A stretch of 64,000 bases of DNA from a virus, in the IMG/VR virus record IMGVR_UViG_3300032731_001452, positions 5,218 through 69,217 of that record; one strand, 5' to 3'. The notes under the pieces were generated by a model. That model saw nothing but the letters and a program-made list of their open reading frames with translations, had not been told where the DNA came from and did not search any database. Positions 4,201-51,289 of this stretch are shown here, one piece after another (position 1 is the first letter of the stretch; every line of letters starts with the position of its first letter). The position numbers were made by a program, and so were the translations under genes.

Positions 4201-5099
4201 CAGATCATCCCCACGTACTGTGGCCGACGATACCGATGTAACCCTTCGTCGATCATGGCCACGCCGGTCCACCAATCACCGCCGGACATTCCAAACTCGG
4301 ATGGTGAAAACTTCTCGTACTCGTACATGTCCGTTTGTTCACGCTTCAACCACGGACAGTTCGCGGCGCCGCCGGCACCCGATCCCATGTAAAGCGCCTC
4401 GATGACGAAATCGCGAACGCCGCCCGGTACTTGTCCCCAACGAGTAAACGTGGCACCTATAGCCGCCGTCGTCAGTAAGAAATCGCCGCCTTCGACCGTA
4501 ATTCTACTGTTCGGGGCGTCAACCGCCACCACCGTCAGGACCGTGCCGTCCGGCATTGTCCCAACGTCGTTACGGCGCAACGCGGCTACCGACGATAGAT
4601 TCAAGTACGTATCGCCGTTAAGAAATTCAACCGTCAAGGTGTACTCGACCTTGTTTACTTGTTCCATCCAACCCCACACCGCATCAACCGAATAGTTATG
4701 CGACCCCTCATACCAGTTACCGAAATGCTTATCGATACGTCGGCGAGGGTGGTTGGTATCCAACGAGAAATCAGTCGTGGCGATTGTCTGCGTCGACGCC
4801 GCCATCTGAACCCAATCGGCTACGCGGTAGCGGCGGGTTCGTTCCGTTTGAAGTGCAATGGTAATGTCCGCTTCAGCCGACAGAATCGGCCAAAGGTCAG
4901 GATGCTGAAGGATCCGATGATCCTGACCGTCAAGGAAGATCTCTTCGTCGCGCGGGTAGTAAATCTGTAGGTTCTGACTTTCTACCCAACGACTCACTTC
5001 GTCCAGGGCTTGCCTGACCGACGCATCGTCAACAACCGCTTGCGGGATACCCCGGTCGCGAATGTCTTGAACCGTTGCGTACCTTGGCGGAAAGGCCAT
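4200..5099 (-). CDS. Head-tail adaptor/connector protein
   Basis: N-terminal YATVQDIRDRG...ALDEVSRWVE and C-terminal WGQVPGGVRDFV...LHRYRRP, typical of gp6/gp15-like adaptors; internal beta insert. Confidence 0.7.
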   Translation of the reverse strand: MAFPPRYATVQDIRDRGIPQAVVDDASVRQALDEVSRWVESQNLQIYYPRDEEIFLDGQDHRILQHPDLWPILSAEADITIALQTERTRRYRVADWVQMAASTQTIATTDFSLDTNHPRRRIDKHFGNWYEGSHNYSVDAVWGWMEQVNKVEYTLTVEFLNGDTYLNLSSVAALRRNDVGTMPDGTVLTVVAVDAPNSRITVEGGDFLLTTAAIGATFTRWGQVPGGVRDFVIEALYMGSGAGGAANCPWLKREQTDMYEYEKFSPSEFGMSGGDWWTGVAMIDEGLHRYRRPQYVGMI

Positions 5100-39734: not shown

Positions 39735-42677
39735 TCAACTTCGACAAATATCGCACGTTCCGCACGTCCAGTCCGCCGGTTTGGATACATCACCGAAGTA
39801 GTCGAGAATCTGCTTTCGACGACACTTCGGTGTTTCGCAGAAGTCGATGATTTGCTGGACAAGCAGCTTAGCCATCCGACGTCGCTTGTCGATCTCAACC
39901 CAATCCATGGCGTCGTCGATGTCTTTCACTTCGATGAGCTTCACGCCACCGCTACGTTGCGGTGGCTTATACTCGATCGCCACGTTATTGAGGCTCCGCA
40001 AAGCCGCGGAGACGTGCTTCTTCTCCATCTCGAGCGCCTTCGCCATGTCAATGGTAGACACCTCAAACCACACGTGCTTTACGACACGCATTTCTTGCAG
40101 GTACTCAAGTACTTCCGCGGCTCGACCGCGGAACTTCTTCTTGGGTTCGATATGCGCCACTTCGCCGATATCGTTGGCGCGGAACTTGCGAACCACACCA
40201 GCCTTGAGCATGAAGTTCCAAACAGCGCCGATGTGGGCGTCTTGAATCCATTCGCCGATTTCAGCGGCAAAAGCACCCTGCGAAACGAACAGCTCGCCGC
40301 TAGGAATGTTACTGAGCCGTCGAATCGTATGTTCGTAGACAGCTCGGATAACGCCGTCAGGCGGCCACGACATTGCTACGAAGAAATCCTGAAGCGAACG
40401 GTCACCCGGTCGATACAGCAACGCTACGCGAGAAGGCTCGCCGTCACGACCGGCACGACCAATCTCTTGGTAGTAAGCCTCAACGGAACCCGGCATTTGC
40501 ATATGCGCGATACCGCGGATATTGGATTTATCGACGCCCATCCCAAACGCGTTCGTGGCCACGATGAGCTGCGCTTCATCATTCATGAAAGCGTCTTGTA
40601 CCGCCGTGCGTTTCTGCGCGGTCATTCCGCCGTGGTACGGTTTTGCCTTGAAGCCTGAACTACACAAAACGTCGGCGGTTTCTTCAACTTGCGAACGAGT
40701 TCCGCAGTACACAATCATCGAACCTTCGACGTTGTCGACGAACTCAAAGAGGGCGTCCAACTTCTGCGGTCCGTAAGTTTTGATTATGTCGATCTCGAGG
40801 TTGGGCCGATCGAATCCATGAACGAGTACGTTGGCGTTCTTCATCTCGAGCTGTTCCGCGATATCTTCACGAACCACCGCGGTCGCTGTTGCGGTAACGG
40901 CGAGACAAGTGGGGTTACCAAGCTGCTTTCGAACGTTAGCTAACTGCAAATACTTCGGCCTGAAGTCGTGACCCCACTTACTGATACAATGAGATTCGTC
41001 GATAGCTAACAGCGACACCTCAACGTCCAACTTACGCATGAACGTAGCCGTCAAACCTTCAGGTGCAATGAACAACGTCTTGATTCTACCCTCGTTTACG
41101 TTGACGATGGTAGCTTCTCGCGTGGCGTCGTTCATGGTGCTGTTGTAAGCTGACGCTGGAATGTTCAACTTCAACAAACCATCAACTTGGTCTTTCATGA
41201 GGCTGATGAGTGGGCTGATAACGATCGTGAGACCTGGAAGCATGAGTGAGGGGATCTGGTACGTCAGAGAGTTATGTAAAACAAACTCATCAGCAACAAA
41301 ACTAGCCTTAAATCCATTGTTTTGACTTTCGATAACAACGTCAAAAGTTTCTTTTTCTTCTACTGGTCCAAGATATTTTATCTCATCCCAGAAAATATCA
41401 TTCTTGGATAATAAATGACATTCGAAACCTTCAATGCGACCACTTCTTTTAGCAAACATCTCGCGACTCATTCGGCGAGAATTTTTAAGATAGAAGGAAC
41501 TGTCGAATACGTACGTCTTACTAAGCTTAACGAGACGCCTATCTCTATCCAACAAGTCCCAGTAGGAATAAGGAACGACATCGACGTTGGTGTTGGACTC
41601 GCTACTCTCCAACTTTCCCCACAACGCTCGGAAAGAATGAAATTTCTTACCAACTAACCACGGTTGGATAAGTTCGTTAAAGATTGCCAGGTCACCATGA
41701 CCCGAAATAGACAAGATCCAACTATCTCTAACGCCGCCTTGATACTTAGCGAGTTTGTATCGAAAACGAGACAAAATTCCGCATCGTAAAAACAAGTGTT
41801 GTAGTTGTTTGATTAACGCCTTAGAAGCCGATGTATATGCTACCGAATGCTCCTCAATCCACCCACCACCTGAAATTACTCTACCTAAAAATCTACAAAC
41901 CTGATCGGTAGACGTAAGAAACAATTGGCTAGGAACCACCCTGCTTGGCGAATGAACGCCTAATAATCCGTACTTTTTCAACAACAAATTCAAAGGGTTG
42001 CTACTAGCTCCAGCTTTTCCGTCTCGTCTACCCGGACGGGTGGTTGCGGATAGCTGCATTGAGCGTCCATTATACCATGGCGTACACCCTAAACTCGTAG
42101 TTAGGCAGCTACACAAATCCAGCAAGTCTTGATCTGCTTTGGTGTAATTAGGCGTTTGGCTGTAACGACTAGAACCATCGCATAGCATCAATGCGATTAT
42201 GTCTAATTCAACTTCTGGAATGAGTTGCGAACCATTCAGGTCAAACGAACGAGGCGTGGCTATAAGCTGACCCTCAACCAAATCTCGAACGGTTTGTTCG
42301 CCTCGGCCTGTAAATACTCGATGCTCCAAGGAAAGCCAAGTTTTCCTCCCGGAGCGTAGCCTAATCCACTTACCTTTCTTAACGCCACTAAGGATTACCT
42401 CCAAGGGCTTCACAATTCTTTGATATCCGCATTGATCGTGCGACACAACTTCAAACGGAATCCCAGCTTCCCATCGCCTATACAACTCTCTGCCTGACAC
42501 CACTTCGCCAGTGGATAACGGAACCTGAGCGTCGAGATGAACGCACTTTCCCGCGCCGGTTGGCGTTACAAATAACGTATCTCTACCAGAAAGAATCGAC
42601 TCAATCGTTTCAAGCTGACCGTCACGGAATGACGAGAAACCAAACCACTTCTCTAGAACTTCGATAGGATCGTTCAT
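39735..42677 (-). CDS. recQ: RecQ-family DNA helicase with intein
   Basis: FGFSSFRDGQ, PTGAGK|S, SPLISLMKDQV, IDESHCISKWGHDFRP, ATNAFGMGVDK, YYQEIGRAGRDG and the RQC Zn site CRR...CGTCDIC. Confidence 0.95.
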   Translation of the reverse strand: MNDPIEVLEKWFGFSSFRDGQLETIESILSGRDTLFVTPTGAGKCVHLDAQVPLSTGEVVSGRELYRRWEAGIPFEVVSHDQCGYQRIVKPLEVILSGVKKGKWIRLRSGRKTWLSLEHRVFTGRGEQTVRDLVEGQLIATPRSFDLNGSQLIPEVELDIIALMLCDGSSRYSQTPNYTKADQDLLDLCSCLTTSLGCTPWYNGRSMQLSATTRPGRRDGKAGASSNPLNLLLKKYGLLGVHSPSRVVPSQLFLTSTDQVCRFLGRVISGGGWIEEHSVAYTSASKALIKQLQHLFLRCGILSRFRYKLAKYQGGVRDSWILSISGHGDLAIFNELIQPWLVGKKFHSFRALWGKLESSESNTNVDVVPYSYWDLLDRDRRLVKLSKTYVFDSSFYLKNSRRMSREMFAKRSGRIEGFECHLLSKNDIFWDEIKYLGPVEEKETFDVVIESQNNGFKASFVADEFVLHNSLTYQIPSLMLPGLTIVISPLISLMKDQVDGLLKLNIPASAYNSTMNDATREATIVNVNEGRIKTLFIAPEGLTATFMRKLDVEVSLLAIDESHCISKWGHDFRPKYLQLANVRKQLGNPTCLAVTATATAVVREDIAEQLEMKNANVLVHGFDRPNLEIDIIKTYGPQKLDALFEFVDNVEGSMIVYCGTRSQVEETADVLCSSGFKAKPYHGGMTAQKRTAVQDAFMNDEAQLIVATNAFGMGVDKSNIRGIAHMQMPGSVEAYYQEIGRAGRDGEPSRVALLYRPGDRSLQDFFVAMSWPPDGVIRAVYEHTIRRLSNIPSGELFVSQGAFAAEIGEWIQDAHIGAVWNFMLKAGVVRKFRANDIGEVAHIEPKKKFRGRAAEVLEYLQEMRVVKHVWFEVSTIDMAKALEMEKKHVSAALRSLNNVAIEYKPPQRSGGVKLIEVKDIDDAMDWVEIDKRRRMAKLLVQQIIDFCETPKCRRKQILDYFGDVSKPADWTCGTCDICRS
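41271..42545 (-). mobile_element. LAGLIDADG intein in the RecQ Walker A motif (425 aa)
   Basis: Begins CVHLDA, ends FVLHN before Ser; motifs IALMLCDG and FLGRVISGGG, the second lacking the acidic residue. Confidence 0.95.
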
Positions 42678-42768
42678 GAACACCGCCTTCGAGGTGAATG
42701 ATAGCGGTTGAACGCGGAAGCAACCGTCAACTTGACAGATCTTACGGAGTGCCTATCGTTAAAAGACA

Positions 42769-42841
42769 GGGCGTGTAGTTCAGTGGAGAACGGTGGGAGT
42801 TCAGGCCCGCGTCGGTGTGGGTTCGACTCCCGCCACGCTCA
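42769..42841 (+). tRNA. tRNA-like RNA with aberrant 8-nt anticodon loop (AGTTCAGG; possible UCA anticodon)
   Basis: Acceptor GGGCGTG/CACGCTC, D-arm GTTC/GAAC, T-arm GTGGG-TTCGACT-CCCGC; no encoded CCA; TTGACA...TATCGT promoter upstream. Confidence 0.75.
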
Positions 42842-42856
42842 TAAGAAAGGAAATGA

Positions 42857-43081
42857 ATGCAGCTCACTTTCCGAATCGAGTGCCCCGAATGCAATTGGGG
42901 ACACAAGTTTCGTGACGCCTACGTCAACGAAGGTTGGTTGAAGGGAAAGTGCCATCATTGCGGAAATATTTTCTTCTGGAAAATTAAGGTTACAGGTGTT
43001 CAGATAGAAGTTGATCAAAACCTTCCAGAAGGCAAGCCGTGCAAAACACTGCTGGAAGCTCAAGAAGAGGAATTACCGTGA
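42857..43081 (+). CDS. Small Zn-ribbon protein
   Basis: CPEC...CHHC; AAGGA RBS. Confidence 0.65.
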   Translation: MQLTFRIECPECNWGHKFRDAYVNEGWLKGKCHHCGNIFFWKIKVTGVQIEVDQNLPEGKPCKTLLEAQEEELP

Positions 43082-43173
43082 TCGGTTTTACGTGAAGATG
43101 ATAACGGCGCCAGGGCTCCTCCTGTGTTGGCGAAACACCACTCGTTTCAACAACAAACCAACAGGAGAAACCC

Positions 43174-43503
43174 ATGAAGAACGAACGAATCCGTCACCTC
43201 AAGATCAAGATCGTCAACCTAGCTGATGAAGCCCGCACCATCCGTGCCGAAGAAGCGAAAACCGCCGGCATGGAGAAGTGGCGCCTACAAGACCACCGAA
43301 AAACCGTCGTCCGCGATGCCGCTAGGTGCAACCTACTAGCTTACGCATTCCTGCGAGGAATTCCATATGACTGCGTGGAGTCTCCGAACACCACTAAAGA
43401 CGTCGACCTGTATCGCGTCAAGAAGATCGTCAAGACGTTCGGTGGTGACCAGGACGCTGTATTGGATTGGTTCGCCGACAGCGAGTTGAAAGAAGTGGCC
43501 TAG
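43174..43503 (+). CDS. Conserved phage hypothetical protein
   Basis: LKIKIVNLADEARTIR...HRKTVVR.AAR..LLAYAFLRG.PY motif; AGGAG RBS. Confidence 0.75.
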   Translation: MKNERIRHLKIKIVNLADEARTIRAEEAKTAGMEKWRLQDHRKTVVRDAARCNLLAYAFLRGIPYDCVESPNTTKDVDLYRVKKIVKTFGGDQDAVLDWFADSELKEVA

Positions 43504-43543: not shown

Positions 43544-43807
43544 CTATGAGTCGTCCGTCGGCTTTTTCGTTGGAACTCGTTGTGACGACGAGATGTCACG
43601 GACGGGAAAATCTATCGAAAGATCGTAGATCTCTAAGACACGTCGTCCATCTGTGACGCGTTGCTTATGCCAAAGGTTGTCGTTTGGCATCACGTACGAA
43701 GGCGAAATTCTTTGGTTCGGCGACCAGTACGCAATAATCATGTGGGTGGCGCCTCTTTCAACGCCGCGTTCAAACCACGCCTTAAATTTCGGTAGTAATG
43801 ATTCCAC
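43544..43807 (-). CDS. Hypothetical protein
   Basis: WFERGVERGATHMII motif of small phage proteins. Confidence 0.6.
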   Translation of the reverse strand: MESLLPKFKAWFERGVERGATHMIIAYWSPNQRISPSYVMPNDNLWHKQRVTDGRRVLEIYDLSIDFPVRDISSSQRVPTKKPTDDS

Positions 43808-46324: not shown

Positions 46325-46410
46325 TGGCGGCTGGTACAAGATTCGAACTTGTGCGGGTGTCCCCGACCTCGGATTAGCAATCCGGCACCTTGCCACTCGG
46401 TCAACCAGCC
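46325..46410 (-). tRNA. tRNA-Ser(GCT)
   Basis: Cloverleaf with long variable arm, loop TT-GCT-AA, encoded GCCA end. Confidence 0.9.
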
Positions 46411-46418
46411 AGAAAATA

Positions 46419-46497
46419 TGGCTCCCCAGGTCCGGTTCGAACGGACGTACTACACGGCTTAACAGGCCGCAGCTAACCCCAACTCAGCTACTGGGGA
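46419..46497 (-). tRNA. tRNA-Asn(GTT)
   Basis: TCCCCAG/CTGGGGA acceptor, loop CT-GTT-AA, CCA. Confidence 0.88.
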
Positions 46498-46951
46498 ACA
46501 AACGAAAAATTTCAATCACGTTGTCATCGATTCTCTTCTGAACGTCTTTTGGAATTGGAACCTTACCTACCCCAAAATATTTACCAGTCAAGAACAAGCC
46601 GCACGTTCTGCTACAAGACGTAAACCTTGAACCTTTTGTTAAATGGGTCTGACGGTATTCGCGCTCAAAAACACAACCGCAATTAGGACATCGAAGCCGC
46701 GCCATTTGCCTTCCTCGCTCACGATTATGCTCGCTGTTGTGCTTCCCCTTCTTCTTCAACTCCAAATTTTCAAAACGATTATCACGCTTGTTTCGGTTCT
46801 CGTGGTGAACCACCTCATCGCTTTTTGGCACCACCCCCGTGCGTCTCCAGTAAACCAAATGATGCTCATAGCAGTATTTTCCACGGTACTTCTTACCTGG
46901 ATATTCTTCTAGAGCGACAACTAACTCGTATTCACCATTTCTCATGGCCAT
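46484..46951 (-). mobile_element. Free-standing HNH homing endonuclease in the tRNA cluster
   Basis: YEHHLV...VVHHENRNKRDNRFENLEL plus C-terminal CPNC/CSRTC; its stop overlaps the 5' end of tRNA-Asn. Confidence 0.88.
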
Positions 46952-46986
46952 ACGTTAACAGAACTCAAAGAAATGCTCTACCTATT

Positions 46987-47065
46987 TGGCAGGGGATACA
47001 GGGCTCGAACCCTCAACACCAGGATCTGGAATCCCGTACTCTATCCAGTTGGAGCTACTGACCCA
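46987..47065 (-). tRNA. Degenerate tRNA-Trp(CCA)
   Basis: Loop TT-CCA-GA and CCA end present, but acceptor TGGGTCA/ATCCCCT pairs only 3/7 and the T-arm is imperfect. Confidence 0.65.
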
Positions 47066-47149
47066 TATGCTATAGTTACGACGGGTAGTAACCTACCAGT
47101 TTCGCCACTGCTTCAACGCCTCGAGCTTCGGTTCGGGGCGTTGTCGATT

Positions 47150-47228
47150 TGGTGCGGGTAGTGAGACTTGAACTCACGGCCTCCTGCTTGGCAAGCAAGC
47201 GCTCTAAAACCAACTGAGCTATACCCGC
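47150..47228 (-). tRNA. tRNA-Gly(GCC)
   Basis: GCGGGTA/TACCCGC acceptor, loop TT-GCC-AA, ACCA end. Confidence 0.92.
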
Positions 47229-47237
47229 GTGTTGTTG

Positions 47238-47324
47238 TGGTACCGAGGGAGGGAGTCGAACCCTCACAGCCTCGCGGCTACTGGATCCTAAATCCAGCGC
47301 GTCTGCCAACTTCGCCACCCCGGT
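47238..47324 (-). tRNA. tRNA-Leu(TAG)
   Basis: Long variable arm, loop TT-TAG-GA, ACCA end. Confidence 0.92.
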
Positions 47325-47617
47325 TCACAACACATGCATCTCTCCACCCCCGGCCGCCGCCAGGTTGGTGGGCGAACGGGGGTAACTGACTACGTACCGA
47401 GTAGCTGGAGCTGTCCTAAGAATTGGCGGGACAAGGTGTGCATGATGAGAACGTAACACGACCTCGACGTTTTTGGAAGCGAAATCAACTTGTCTAAACC
47501 ACCCAACTTGACGACGCGGTCAACTAGGCAAATTTAGTAAAGCTGGCGCCACCAAGTTGCCCTGACGGCGCCGCAACTCCTTCTACACATGGCAGGCGAG
47601 CTGGTAGAAGTATAACA

Positions 47618-47694
47618 TGGTGGGCGGTGCCAGGATCGAACTGGCGACCTTGACCTTGTAGGGGTCCTGTTCTCCCTAACTGAACTAACCGCCC
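47618..47694 (-). tRNA. tRNA-Val(TAC) with C33
   Basis: GGGCGGT/ACCGCCC acceptor, loop CC-TAC-AA, ACCA end. Confidence 0.85.
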
Positions 47695-48041
47695 GCGATT
47701 CTGTACCGTTCGTTCGATTTCCACGGATCTCGTACACCTCGTCCGTTGAGATGTTTCAAAGCCATCTCTTGAGCCTTCTTAGTTTCGTATCCAGGCCAGG
47801 ACGTACGCCACTTATTCCTACCGAACCAGCCACCTTTGTACTCGAGCCGGAACTTCTTAGACCGAGCCCTCTTATGGTGCCACGCTTCTTCGTAGCAACT
47901 TTCGATGGTTACGGATTGACGGACGACACGACGCTTCGTCGAAGATTCCAACCACCACGGGTCGCGGTACCAATGGTGTCCTTGGTTACGATGTTTCCGT
48001 GCGAACGCACGGGTTTCCCCATTTTGCCAGTTGACATGCAT
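47685..48041 (-). CDS. Basic, Trp-rich hypothetical protein
   Basis: AAGGAG RBS; preceded by a 6-codon uORF MCIAST; stop overlaps tRNA-Val. Confidence 0.6.
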   Translation of the reverse strand: MHVNWQNGETRAFARKHRNQGHHWYRDPWWLESSTKRRVVRQSVTIESCYEEAWHHKRARSKKFRLEYKGGWFGRNKWRTSWPGYETKKAQEMALKHLNGRGVRDPWKSNERYRIAGG

Positions 48042-48098
48042 GTGTTAGCTCTCCTTTACGTTGAAGCTATACACATGGTGAATCTCCTTTCTGAAGGA

Positions 48099-48123
48099 AG
48101 GTGGGGCGCATCCTGCGCCCCAC
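48099..48123 (-). terminator. Terminator-like hairpin in a 5' leader
   Basis: GGTGGGGCGCA-GGA-TGCGCCCCACC followed by TTCCTT; extended -10 TGCTATAAT at 48195-48203. Confidence 0.6.
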
Positions 48124-48209
48124 CCGGGTTCGGGAATACCTGGCAGGGTGGTCCCGTACTCACTTGAGACTAACGTCCCGTGATTGGCTTAGGAATTATA
48201 GCAGACCGA

Positions 48210-48533
48210 CTAACTCTTTGTGGCGTCGAGATCGAAAACTGGATTACCGCTGAACTGGACGCCGGTCAAAACGATTCGCATCAAATTCTCATCGTCGTGA
48301 TGGCGCGAAATACCGTAGCCGGTAAACTTCCCGTCGTACGCGAACTTTTGCCGATTCGGAACGACTCGAATCAATCCTTCACCCGGAAGATCATCGGGTA
48401 GTTCATCCATGAGGTTGACGTGCTTCACCAACTCAAGGGTGTCGCCGTTTGTCTTGACAGACTTGAATCCAACGGCCTTGCCGTTGATAGTTACCGCAAA
48501 GTTGTAACCTTTGATGATCATGATAATCTCCAA
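48210..48533 (-). CDS. Hypothetical beta-rich protein, faint tail-tube resemblance
   Basis: YNFAVTINGKAVGFKSV; start uncertain. Confidence 0.5.
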   Translation of the reverse strand: MEIIMIIKGYNFAVTINGKAVGFKSVKTNGDTLELVKHVNLMDELPDDLPGEGLIRVVPNRQKFAYDGKFTGYGISRHHDDENLMRIVLTGVQFSGNPVFDLDATKS

Positions 48534-48699
48534 ATCAAAAATGAGCGCCTAACAGCTGGCACGCGGGAGAGTTGATCAAGCTCTCAGAAACAATGACCTT
48601 TACCGCGCCTGTGTCTAGGGTGGTCGAACCCTCAAGGTTCCTGGTTTGCGCTCGGTAATACGAACCCTTTTTCCATAAGTTGATTATAGCGGTTGAACT

Positions 48700-48891
48700 T
48701 TAAGATTCAGCGCAACTCGAGGGAGATACGCTGTTGTCGACGATCGTCATTACCCCACACCGTTTGCAATTTGGGGATTTTGTCGTAGGCAACACGAACA
48801 CAGCCTTACTGCACGAAGGACGCCTAAAATACGAAGCTAGCGCCGGCATAAGGTCGTCTTCGTTAAACGTTTTCGTTCGCTGTTTACTCAT
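48700..48891 (-). CDS. Small Cys-containing protein
   Basis: Probable ATG 48891 (MSKQRTKTF); PSC and CKRCG. Confidence 0.45.
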   Translation of the reverse strand: MSKQRTKTFNEDDLMPALASYFRRPSCSKAVFVLPTTKSPNCKRCGVMTIVDNSVSPSSCAES

Positions 48892-48913
48892 TTCGCGATT
48901 CGGTACAAAACCA

Positions 48914-48936
48914 AAAGTTTGCGGCTTGCAAACTTT
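48914..48936. repeat. Dispersed palindrome copy 4
   Basis: Identical 23-mer; shares the flank acaaaacca with copy 3. Confidence 0.95.
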
Positions 48937-48996
48937 TGAAAAGTGCGAGCTTTCCACTCGCTGGGTACGGAATCTCTTCCCTTTCCATGAACAATA

Positions 48997-49214
48997 GGTC
49001 AGGAGGCGGGTATCTAATCCGCTCTTTTATTCGAGACGTCCGTACTCTGGATGGGCCGCGGACGAGTTCTTATCCTCTTAGTCACCACAATCGGGACTCG
49101 GGAGGTATAGAGTGCGATTTCGCCCCATCCCAGTTTCGCTGTTCGTTACTCTCATCCTGCGAAACAAAAATCGTCAGCCACGGATAATCTTGCGTACATC
49201 CCGTTACCCCGACC
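48997..49214 (-). ncRNA. Candidate tmRNA/tRNA-like mini-RNA (about 218 nt)
   Basis: Ends pair GGTCGGG/CCTGACC; second helix GGGATGT/ACGTCTC; T-arm-like GCGG-ATTAGATAC-CCGC; internal ORF ADDFCFAG*. Confidence 0.45.
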
Positions 49215-49318
49215 GTTCCTGCTGACACTACGCTGGCGACTTTGTCCCTCTTTGCGTAGTTATCACAATTGCCAAATTATGATGTTTGTAATCACTGTTA
49301 GCTAACTGTAATTAGTTC

Positions 49319-49660
49319 TGGTGGACTCGGCGGGAGTCGAACCCGCGTGTCACGTGTTTTCGCAAGACGTCTACGTAGTCTAGCTCATCTACCCTCAGAG
49401 CGGGGTTTGTCGGAACTTTCCCCGACGGTCAACAACTCTTTATTTCAAGGTAACTTCGGTTGCCTAAGTTTCACCTCTATCGCCGTGTCGTTATGCCTTT
49501 TCTCGCTACCCAGCGAATTCTCGCAAGAAAGACACCCGGGCTCACACGGTCCCGGGAAGCAACAGCTTACGCTGCGGCCTGAAGAGGAGTTTCGTCAACT
49601 CGTTTTCATTTTACTACGCAATCTTGGTTGCAATCACCCGATCGAAACCGTTACGAGCCC
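49319..49660 (-). ncRNA. ssrA: tmRNA (SsrA)
   Basis: 5' GGGCTCGTAACGGTTTCGAT; 3' GACACGCGGGTTCGACTCCCGCCGAGTCCACCA; G3:U70 and A73; tag frame 49567-49596 gives (A)DETPLQAAA*. Confidence 0.93.
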
Positions 49661-49859
49661 ATTTCAAAGATCTATCGTTCTTCCAATGTAAAGACTCTCA
49701 AGCCGATCCTCAAGGTGCTACTCGAGAAATCCCCAACGCCTTTGCCTGCCCGCTTCACGATCTCGAAAACTGTTGTCGAAACCATCCACGGGCCATCCAG
49801 CAAATAGCGCGCGCTAAGTTGCTTGAAAGCCTTTAGATTGAAAGAACACGAACAATTTT

Positions 49860-50750
49860 TCGGCCACCCGGGACTCCCCTATGGGCGGGCGGCCACCCCA
49901 GAGAATACCCCCGGGGAATACTTGAGCAGTGTTTACAACAGCATGCTCAGGCTGGGCTCATATGCTCACGACTTTCAACTACCAAGTCTAGCAAATCTGC
50001 CAACGGTTTCCGCAATTTTTGGCAGCTACGCTTCTTCGCGTTCTTCGGTGCGCACTGGCAACCGAATTACTTGGTCGGTTTTGCCCACCCCACCGACCAA
50101 AGGGTTAAACAACTACTGAGCTTAAGAGGTGGACCAAGTTAAGCTCCGGGCAGCTCCAAGACCGTAGCCCGGGAGCGCCCCAAGATCGCTCTTGGGGGAT
50201 GAAAAGTGCTGAGCTAGGTACTCAGCGTGGAGACCTTCCGTCTCTTTGGGTAGTTATACCGTATTTATTTCGTCAAAGCCCTCTACACTACCAGAGGTAC
50301 TAAGCTATCTACTAGTTCATGAGGACAGTAGCTGCCCGGTGCCGGCAATCATGTGGCCTAGCCACCAGCAGGAGTTCTCATCCTACAGACCACTTACGGA
50401 TGAGGTGTCTAAATTTGCCAGGTCTAGGACCATCAGCCCGGCTGAGGCGCATGCCATTATGCTAACTAGCCCTGCCTTAGTTTTCATCAACGTTAGTGTC
50501 AGCGACTAACGCAGACTACAGTCACTTTTATACCCGGTGACTACAGGCTGAACACGCATGGGGCGTGGTTCATCTAAAAACGATTGCAGCCAGGATTTTC
50601 ACCTGGAACCCAAGGTTTCCTCCGTCTTTCAACGGACTATTACTCACACGTAGCTTAGGTTTGCATCAATTCCTCCGAATTTAATCGGTCTACAATCAAA
50701 CTTCCAACGTTCACGCAACCTTTTGCGTCAACGTTTTATTATAGTTTCAA
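49860..50750 (-). ncRNA. Candidate large structured non-coding RNA(s)
   Basis: About 900 nt with no credible CDS and more than 15 adjacent hairpins; sigma70 promoter at 50764-50793. Confidence 0.6.
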
Positions 50751-50763
50751 ACAACTGAGATAG

Positions 50764-50793
50764 GTTATAGCATCGACTAGCTAGCTGCGTCAA
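50764..50793 (-). promoter_or_regulatory. Sigma70 promoter driving the ncRNA/tmRNA region
   Basis: TTGACG-18-TATAAC with TG extension; AGCTAGCT palindrome in the spacer. Confidence 0.7.
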
Positions 50794-50797
50794 GGAC

Positions 50798-51196
50798 CTA
50801 ATCGTCTTTTTCTGGCCACCCCAAAGCACGCATCGCCGGACGACTCATTAGGCGGCCTTGAAGCCCGTGAATGTCGTGACAAGTCTCTTCATCATCCATC
50901 GGGTGAAGCTTCGGAAGCGCGAAGATTCGCGTAGCCGCTTCGGTAACAGCATCCAACGCTTCGATCTCTTGATCGTTCATGCCTGCGTCTTGTAAGCACT
51001 GAAGATCCTTGGGTACGCCACCTTCCTTGAGTCGAAGACGATCGTCAAGCTCGACGTAGGCTTTGATCCACGTTTCAGCCCACTCCATCAATTCCTTACG
51101 AGCTGCGTATTGCACGTGTTCTGATTCGCGCGGCACTAACTGAAGCTTCTCGATAAGTTCGCGAAACTGGCGTAACGGTTCGTCAATGTTTCTCAT
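50798..51196 (-). CDS. Hypothetical protein (probably leaderless)
   Basis: True start likely ATG 51196, since the track ORF runs into tRNA-Gln; LPKLHPMDDEETCHDIHGLQ motif. Confidence 0.65.
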   Translation of the reverse strand: MRNIDEPLRQFRELIEKLQLVPRESEHVQYAARKELMEWAETWIKAYVELDDRLRLKEGGVPKDLQCLQDAGMNDQEIEALDAVTEAATRIFALPKLHPMDDEETCHDIHGLQGRLMSRPAMRALGWPEKDD

Positions 51197-51213
51197 GATT
51201 ATATTATAGCGGT

Positions 51214-51289
51214 TGGTTGGGGAGGTAGGGCTTGAACCTACAACATCTGGCTTCAAAGGCCAGTGCTCTACCAGTTGAGCTACACCCCA
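51214..51289 (-). tRNA. tRNA-Gln(TTG)
   Basis: TGGGGTG/CTCCCCA acceptor (one mismatch), loop CT-TTG-AA, ACCA end. Confidence 0.9.

Follow-up and report, generated by a model that had tools for sequence, protein, structure and literature searches.

In the ermCL-ermC and secM-secA systems a ribosome stalled on the leader unmasks the Shine–Dalgarno sequence of the next gene, the trigger being a drug or secretion status, and in prfB a slippery CUU-U and an internal Shine–Dalgarno sequence, with no special tRNA, serve to regulate release factor 2 (RF2) itself. The leader described here resembles the RAPP arrest peptides (ApdA, ApdP and ApcA, together with SecM, whose core is RAGP, and CruR), which likewise carry an R-A/G-P-P core near the end of a small upstream open reading frame (ORF) directly before the regulated gene; the likeness extends to the substitutions at position 2 of the core and to the expected stall, in which R-A-P occupies the P site and Pro the A site (PMC12992588, PMC10951233). 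The locus in question lies in 64 kb of phage DNA (hereafter the window) out of a 69-kb IMG/VR contig, record IMGVR_UViG_3300032731_001452, which is estimated to hold about 40% of the complete genome. Here an aberrant tRNA is followed by a short leader with an RAPP motif and by a gene for a 109-aa protein, and we think it probable from the comparison of sequences that together they form a translational switch gated by a phage-encoded suppressor (four-base-decoding) tRNA and working through an arrest motif that frees the ribosome-binding site of the gene. The features on which this reading turns are as follows.

42769–42841, + strand: tRNA with an 8-nt anticodon loop holding UUCA and no encoded CCA end (ARAGORN, Rfam), read here as a four-base (UGAA) decoder
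43078–43095, + strand: mini-ORF of 5 codons plus TGA (MIGFT, with GTG as Met); the GTG overlaps the stop of a preceding Zn-ribbon ORF, and a GAGGA-like stretch lies ~7 nt upstream
43093–43096, + strand: putative recoding site TGA+A, complementary to the tRNA loop UUCA
43097–43177, + strand: +1-frame leader segment DDNGARAPPVLAKHHSFQQQTNRRNP then stop, the closing TGA overlapping the ATG of the next gene
43112–43123, + strand: RAPP arrest motif (AGG GCT CCT CCT), conserved upstream of homologues
43113–43173, + strand: predicted hairpin hiding the ribosome-binding site, in which 43119–43125 (the Pro codons and the two next bases) pairs with 43161–43167
43174–43503, + strand: gene for a conserved all-helical phage protein of 109 aa (homologue clusters; AlphaFold2 pLDDT 90), the candidate regulated gene

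In the mechanism that we propose, one transcript, probably starting from the sole promoter-like site found ahead of the gene, at 42732, would carry the tRNA, the Zn-ribbon gene, the leader and the 109-aa gene. Ribosomes would translate the 5-codon mini-ORF and reach UGA followed by A. In the absence of the tRNA they would terminate there, the Shine–Dalgarno sequence would stay paired with the two leader Pro codons and the gene would be OFF. With the charged 8-nt-loop (UUCA) tRNA present, UGA-A would be decoded as four bases, putting the ribosome into the +1 frame, where five codons further on R-A-P would have been made and the ribosome would stall with the second Pro codon in the A site, as in the RAPP arrest peptides. 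The stalled ribosome would cover the anti-Shine–Dalgarno stretch and block the hairpin, so that other ribosomes could start at 43174 and the gene would be ON; a ribosome escaping the stall would terminate at the ATGA overlap and might re-initiate. The same logic would apply in relatives that have UCUA and UAGA and in those in which an ordinary amber suppressor (CUA) reads a UAG in frame. It is the comparison of these relatives that establishes, at the level of sequence, the parts and their order, the conservation of the peptide, the hairpin, and the way in which anticodon and recoding site go together.

Relatives (numbered L002, L003 and so on) were obtained by alignment-based searches, which gave 11 viral and 74 metagenomic loci, 60 of them distinct after duplicate removal; a single-protein locus search had given no confirmed relative. 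In 78 loci the sequence reaches 100 nt or more upstream of the homologous gene, and in 48 of these R[AG]PP was found in the 300 nt before it. Among the 60 distinct loci, R[AG]PP is present in 36, [RK][AGSDP]PP in 53 and [RKH][AGSDPE]PP in 57, the last at a median distance of 65 nt (interquartile range 62–70) before the start codon. The 57 motifs comprise RGPP (23), RAPP (12), RSPP (10), RDPP (4), KDPP (3), HDPP (2), REPP (2) and RPPP (1). R[AG]PP is a rare motif, by arithmetic expected ~0.014 times per 300 nt over three frames, and R[AGSD]PP occurs only 11 times in all six frames of the window; a frame staying open for 31 codons past a stop is not unusual by itself (~0.2, again by arithmetic). 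That the RAPP frame goes beyond chance is concluded because the motif is conserved upstream of homologues. A second RDPP near a TGAA at about 55661 (− strand) was considered and set aside as chance, as it falls at the 3′ end of a different ORF, with a TAA in between.

Position 2 of the motif is A or G in 35 of the 57 loci and otherwise S, D, E or P, whereas the Arg at position 1 is near-invariant. The residues found in nature at position 2 are those permitted in experiments on ApdA and ApdP, where, by mutagenesis, A and G are fully permissive, S, D, P and E partly so, the Arg is irreplaceable and RGPP is strongest (PMC12992588). R/HxPP is likewise listed as a stalling motif, with 5–12 upstream residues modulating the stall (PMC10951233). 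Every one of the six codons for Arg and the four for Pro occurs among the 57 motifs, and since the codons vary while the residues stay, the constraint acts on the peptide. This bears on the suggestion that the leader is untranslated past the stop codon and that only an RNA hairpin is conserved, with a CCUCC anti-Shine–Dalgarno stretch that happens to read Pro-Pro. CCT is indeed the commonest Pro codon at both positions (28 and 26 of 57), as an anti-Shine–Dalgarno role would favour. The Arg two codons upstream is kept as a residue despite the variety of its codons, however, position 2 is limited to small residues, the frame of the motif is fixed relative to the stop, and the motif persists with CCA CCC or CCG CCC, the Shine–Dalgarno sequence then pairing with downstream bases instead (L002–L005). 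We therefore regard an RNA-only explanation as extremely improbable.

From the way in which the motif frame is entered, the 57 loci can be divided into three classes: 43 have a mini-ORF ending in TGAA with the motif in the +1 frame, six have TAGA with the motif in the +1 frame and eight have an in-frame TAG. As judged from the sequences, the motif frame is reachable by recoding only across all 57. In the TGAA class the mini-ORF usually has 2–5 codons, often ending R/G-F-T, and the motif follows 1–6 codons on in the +1 frame. The window conforms to this, its +1 frame after TGA-A reading DDNGARAPP. The end of its mini-ORF peptide recurs among relatives as IGFT, YGFT or RFT followed by TGAA, and L057 has the same VIGFT mini-ORF with its own Shine–Dalgarno sequence. 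In L002–L005, L016, L021, L024 and L071 the mini-ORF begins (ATG or GTG) 6 nt after the end of a promoter-like site, TTGACA-17-TAnnnT, as read by eye, and in these loci the leader may be translated from a leaderless mRNA.

The original prediction had the RAPP frame entered by another route, through UGA read-through from the ORF that precedes it:

42857–43081, + strand: Zn-ribbon ORF of 74 aa with stop TGA at 43079–43081 (Pfam Zn_ribbon_4, E 1.3e-5, below the Pfam cut-off)

As a description of the sequence this stands throughout. The ORF does end in TGA at 43079–43081, and since 15 of 18 variant positions between the window and a co-occurring strain fall in third codon positions of this ORF, it is a real gene; the RAPP frame also runs on for 31 codons without a stop, lacks ATG, GTG and TTG ahead of RAPP and is closed by a TGA overlapping the ATG at 43174. 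The tRNA, or a shortage of release factor, could in that case let ribosomes from the Zn-ribbon ORF read UGA 43079–43081 in frame into RAPP: the window frame is continuous from the Zn-ribbon stop to the motif, L015 has the same in-frame arrangement, and a U-UCA loop could in principle read UGA as a triplet. The Zn-ribbon ORF between tRNA and leader is found in this phage only, however, and lies outside the conserved module. The closest relative, L013 (80% protein identity), lacks it, and its mini-ORF ends just 35 nt past the tRNA; nothing longer than a mini-ORF of 2–5 codons is present in most loci. No relative has a convincing in-frame TGA leader, against 43 with TGAA and a +1 frame; the base after the Zn-ribbon TGA is T, not the conserved A; and the stretch shared with L015 consists of mini-ORF nucleotides in another frame. 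In-frame read-through is thus distinctly improbable as the mode of entry. Because L013 has no Zn-ribbon gene, the conserved entry is taken to be the +1 route at TGA-A 43093–43096 and not read-through of the Zn-ribbon stop. Both routes reach one frame here, and in this phage in-frame read-through may be a second way in. In L056 (2220–2491) a longer upstream ORF with CxxC pairs ends ...GFT-TGAA, a real gene doubling as mini-ORF, which recalls the Zn-ribbon ORF of the window.

The strongest argument that the tRNA decodes the site is the link, at sequence level, between the identity of the stop codon, the frame of the motif and the anticodon loop. The relatives have an odd tRNA on the strand of the module, upstream of it and as a rule less than 400 nt away. 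Of the TGAA loci, 34 have such a tRNA, and all 34 show UUCA in its anticodon region; CUA is found there in six of the seven TAG-type loci, the exception being L038. A UCUA loop goes with TAGA in L017 and L023 (the L017 loop, for example, being UUUCUAAC). Where the stem has five unambiguous pairs, the +1 loci have loops of 8 or 9 nt (11/11, a count that includes L057 and L059, in which tRNA and leader print identically) and the in-frame loci have loops of 7 nt (2/2; UUCUAAC in L041 is an example). The fourth base is A in 49 of 53 +1 candidates (mini-ORF of at least 2 codons), and A, G or C in the in-frame class. Thus the conservation that the original prediction had proposed as a check, of RAPP upstream of homologues with a stop before it, extends across the family to the motif, the preceding stop and the neighbouring odd tRNA.

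The same correspondence tells against a +1 shift made without the phage tRNA, that is, a prfB-like slip at slow UGA or UAG termination in which the leader senses RF2 or RF1 and the tRNA is nearby for other reasons. The stop codon would be the shift site, as in prfB; the family sits in tRNA clusters anyway, which makes adjacency weak evidence; and competition with release factor must affect the outcome in any case. A leader of this kind would leave it unexplained that stop and frame track the neighbouring anticodon (34/34 for UUCA and TGAA, 6/7 for CUA and TAG), and both the in-frame TAG class and loci with a TAG at codon 3 of the gene itself (see below) need a true suppressor. The codon before the stop varies (ACC, ACG, TGG, AAC, TAT, TTG and others) and is not slippery, and neither CUU-U nor an internal Shine–Dalgarno sequence was seen in the leaders read. 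We consider a tRNA-independent shift unlikely.

In the proposed switch the gene is held OFF by the hairpin. The Shine–Dalgarno sequence of the 109-aa gene, AGGAG at 43163–43167, lies inside one arm of it, and the fold in the window has a predicted energy of −22.4 kcal/mol (z −3.81), a value not reached by any of 200 shuffles. Leaders as a set fold better relative to shuffles (mean z −3.19, n=53) than do 133 control gene upstream regions (−0.59; Mann–Whitney p 7e-16). In 41 of 55 leaders, as compared with 49 of 133 controls (p 2.6e-6), the Shine–Dalgarno sequence is paired with the first 22 nt counted from the Arg codon, a stretch that would lie under the stalled ribosome. The pairing of Pro codons with the Shine–Dalgarno sequence fits the suggestion in the original prediction that a stall would control the downstream gene. 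After the motif the frame meets a stop within 0–8 codons in 22 of 57 leaders, ends by overlapping the start codon in 16 (the window included) and is fused to the gene in four.

Six loci were held out and looked at after the pattern had been defined (phages NCTB, DSS3_MAL1, DLP_5, BUCT-ZZ01 and OLIVR1, which are cultured, and L090, a contig from a metagenome-assembled genome), and all six show the same layout. Phage NCTB has TGAA and then CNRGPP, and L090 has TGAA and then CHDPP. DSS3_MAL1 has a CUA tRNA, an in-frame TAG and then IRPPP. The remaining three (DLP_5, BUCT-ZZ01 and OLIVR1) have an in-frame TAG and then K-P-P-stop, beside a CUA tRNA.

Decoding by the window tRNA, the stall itself and the ON direction are what we infer from these arrangements. 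The direction finds support in two loci: in L040, one of those without the motif, a TAG lies at codon 3 of the gene itself, directly after the CUA tRNA, and L036 (unscored in the motif count) has the same layout, so that as far as the sequence tells their expression depends positively on suppression. L050, also without the motif, has an in-frame TAG and then RASP. The parts could nonetheless be as described and the outcome different, in that the stall might repress, might trigger mRNA cleavage or tagging by transfer-messenger RNA (tmRNA), or might merely tolerate a tRNA with a job elsewhere, such as escape from anticodon nucleases, or the extension or frameshifting of other proteins of phage or host. 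The ON direction is, after all, only inferred, a tmRNA gene comes right after the gene in L003, L004 and BUCT-ZZ01 and another is present in the window, and with the contig at ~40% of the genome other targets could exist; evasion of host nucleases has been proposed for phage tRNAs whose anticodon loops are altered (PMC10264068). Such outcomes would not account for the loci with TAG at codon 3, for an anti-Shine–Dalgarno stretch placed under the stalled ribosome in 41/55 leaders, or for the leaders that end on the start codon (16/57) or are fused in frame (four), both of which hand ribosomes to the gene. Other targets were also looked for. Genes split at TGAA with a +1 continuation were not enriched in the window (there were 6 cases, and most other classes had more), where we see no TGAA-split gene, and in the complete DLP_5 genome no TAG-split gene was evident (4 open-frame pairs, 0 matching annotated genes). 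A stall that does not turn the gene ON is accordingly improbable in our estimation.

The window otherwise uses the standard genetic code, its 63 non-overlapping ORFs of at least 100 aa giving 83% coverage under code 11 and ending in TAG (24), TGA (20) or TAA (19). Reading TGA as sense only added spurious frames, and the hallmark of a stop-codon-recoded phage, a stop in frame inside many genes and longer ORFs under the alternative code, was not seen in the window.

Several observations weigh against a switch of the kind proposed and should be set beside the evidence for it. Base pairing by itself does not distinguish a four-base UUCA anticodon from a Glu-like UUC reading GAA in the +1 frame, and Infernal aligns the loops as Glu-like UUC; decoding of the stop codon is favoured because the amber-suppressor class exists. 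The +1 suppressor tRNAs whose structures are solved reportedly decode a triplet in the A site and shift later, and 'four-base decoding' is therefore used here as shorthand. The tRNA loop of L038 fits no simple reading, and L053, the third of the loci without the motif, shows no leader. Since 7 of the 20 TGA-ending ORFs in the window end TGAA, decoding UGAA efficiently would upset the ends of the phage's own genes, and the window tRNA is therefore probably inefficient, in which case the stall may act as an amplifier. The nascent chain at the stall would have just 7–25 residues; known RAPP peptides need ~5–12 residues of suitable upstream context (PMC10951233). The K-P-P-stop of three cultured phages is not RxPP and would be a weaker, different pause signal. 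As to the hairpin, a paired Shine–Dalgarno sequence is common at the outset, being found at 61% of control starts, and RNAalifold returned no common pairs for 51 aligned leaders, the hairpin arms being out of register between lineages; because this consensus failed, the hairpin rests on single-sequence folds and not on aligned covariation.

The window tRNA itself is well supported as a tRNA. ARAGORN reports 42769–42841 as tRNA-??? with anticodon (ttca), Rfam matches it at 44.5 bits (gathering score 29), and its anticodon arm has five stem pairs and an 8-nt loop in a cloverleaf that is otherwise normal, so that the tRNA with an 8-nt anticodon loop of the original prediction is borne out by both programs and by stem and loop parsing. 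A BLAST search of this tRNA against neighbouring tRNAs gave no isotype, the comparison set being contaminated by mis-called copies of the same suppressors, and an 18-nt pattern from its anticodon arm had no match in viral contigs. A contig of a co-occurring strain (one public run) matches both flanks, with the tRNA stretch 42784–42856 the same length and diverged; the window tRNA may be changing more quickly than the sequence around it. A cluster of ordinary tRNA genes, six in all (Ser, Asn, Gly, Leu, Val and Gln), is found at 46325–51289 of the window on the − strand. Elsewhere, the tRNA loop of L038 (2239–2500) is UGUUAAAU, called 'Stop, tta' by ARAGORN, and its leader offers three formal routes into RGPP, namely TAGA with a +1 shift, an in-frame TAA without a start codon and a self-complementary UUAA. 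In OLIVR1 (L092) the tRNA at 1575–1648 is annotated as tRNA-Val and is for ARAGORN an unassignable loop holding CUA.

Signals that might bound the transcript were also located:

42732–42759, + strand: sigma-70-like promoter, TTGACA-16-TATCGT (consensus match only), 9 nt ahead of the tRNA
43548–43574, + strand: terminator-like hairpin and T-run after the 109-aa gene (weak: 2 sites, against a shuffle mean of 1.4)

The first is the promoter that had been predicted ahead of the tRNA-like RNA; a promoter scan gave 1 site in the region against a shuffle mean of 0.6. A terminator scan found no terminator-like site between the tRNA and the 109-aa gene. A DNA similarity search of the region against phage records gave no match. 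On the other side of the promoter-like site, at 39735–42683 (− strand), is a gene for a RecQ-like helicase (DEAD, Helicase_C and RecQ_Zn_bind domains) split by an intein that carries a LAGLIDADG homing-endonuclease domain.

The 109-aa protein is a member of a family with a conserved start MKNER..., for which there are 57 close clusters and, by profile search (E <= 0.001; clusters at 50% identity), 3471 clusters. Its AlphaFold2 model is all-helical with a pLDDT of 90. No family match was found in Pfam or PHROGs and no usable match in a PDB sequence profile, in Foldseek against PDB or in ESM Atlas; a wide VIA-align search gave a best Z of 7.4, below a meaningful level for helical proteins, and BFVD returned uncharacterised phage homologues only. 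The family generally lies inside or beside phage tRNA clusters and is probably linked to translation; our guess, drawn from the analogy of other arrest systems, would be that the protein feeds back on suppression. In the window a tmRNA (49319–49660, − strand; Rfam 56.1 bits, not called by ARAGORN) was found, and a tmRNA gene comes directly after the 109-aa gene at 4526–4881 in L003, 4530–4904 in L004 and 2891–3309 in L091, BUCT-ZZ01 being among these relatives. This neighbour may link the module to the rescue of stalled ribosomes. Two annotations of family members deserve comment. In DLP_5 (L087, MG189906; 2402–2791) DLP05_071 is annotated from an ATG inside the leader hairpin, and the family alignment suggests a later ATG. 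In OLIVR1 (1752–2219) gp84 is labelled 'putative structural protein', for which no proteomic support was found in the accessible part of PMC10132094.

If the proposed switch is correct, wild-type tRNAs that decode four bases exist in nature and are conserved with a dedicated target, where previously such tRNAs were laboratory suppressor mutants or engineered tools; arrest-peptide control would be exerted by a trans-acting tRNA on entry into the stall and not on release; and the suppressor or unassignable tRNAs of standard-code phages ('tRNA-Sup', 'tRNA-Pyl', 'tRNA-???' and mislabelled Glu or Val) would be explained. It would also offer synthetic biology a compact orthogonal translational switch, and a very large uncharacterised phage family would be flagged as probably translation-linked. 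As the module is carried by the cultured phages DSS3_MAL1 (host Ruegeria pomeroyi) and Synechococcus phage BUCT-ZZ01 (host Synechococcus elongatus), whose hosts are not pathogens, these predictions are directly testable. More tentatively, and as something that we hold possible rather than probable, many tailed phages may carry a natural orthogonal four-base codon/tRNA pair (UGAA/UUCA or UAGA/UCUA, with an amber variant) for gene regulation, in which the tRNA would be a trans-acting regulator, the arrest leader would amplify inefficient suppression, and the 109-aa protein would tune suppression, termination or ribosome rescue and so close a feedback loop. We found no description of the module in open-access literature and bioRxiv (subscription journals and supplementary files being outside the search).

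Known RAPP arrest peptides are secreted or membrane proteins of 100–200 residues in which stalling invariably occurs and is relieved by pulling force or a ligand, and they regulate Sec, YidC or metal genes; here the setting is a phage gene, the leader has 7–25 residues and no targeting signal, and the regulated step would be that of reaching the motif. An N-terminal signal peptide or membrane segment for release by pulling force was not found, and a chain of this length leaves no room for one. As in secM-secA, a ribosome stalled on a short leader would melt a hairpin hiding the Shine–Dalgarno sequence of the next gene (PMC10951233). Unlike in ermCL and secM, the trigger would be a trans-acting tRNA, and in many loci the stall codons are themselves the anti-Shine–Dalgarno stretch.

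The tRNAs resemble sufD, sufJ, SufB2 and the engineered quadruplet tRNAs in their 8-nt loop, four-base complementarity and +1 outcome, and the UCUA/UAGA of L017 and L023 is the very pair used by engineers (PMC9094753, PMC4764823); the first of these papers also expects natural quadruplet tRNAs to be rarer than variant codes. Known frameshift suppressors are laboratory mutants or designs, whereas those described here are wild-type and conserved across many phages, each with a dedicated site. Stop-recoded phages (codes 4 and 15) similarly encode CUA or UCA tRNAs (10.1101/2021.08.26.457843, PMC9523058). Those phages reassign the stop across late genes, whereas here the only evident target is one leader. 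With prfB the locus would share a regulatory +1 shift that takes place at an in-frame UGA and competes with release factor. A further parallel is synthetic, the leader switches built for unnatural amino acids, in which a TAG is placed in the leader and a suppressor tRNA decides downstream expression (PMC6412442); these are man-made and act on transcription through trp or tna leaders, whereas the switch proposed here would be natural, would act on translation and would work through an arrest motif.

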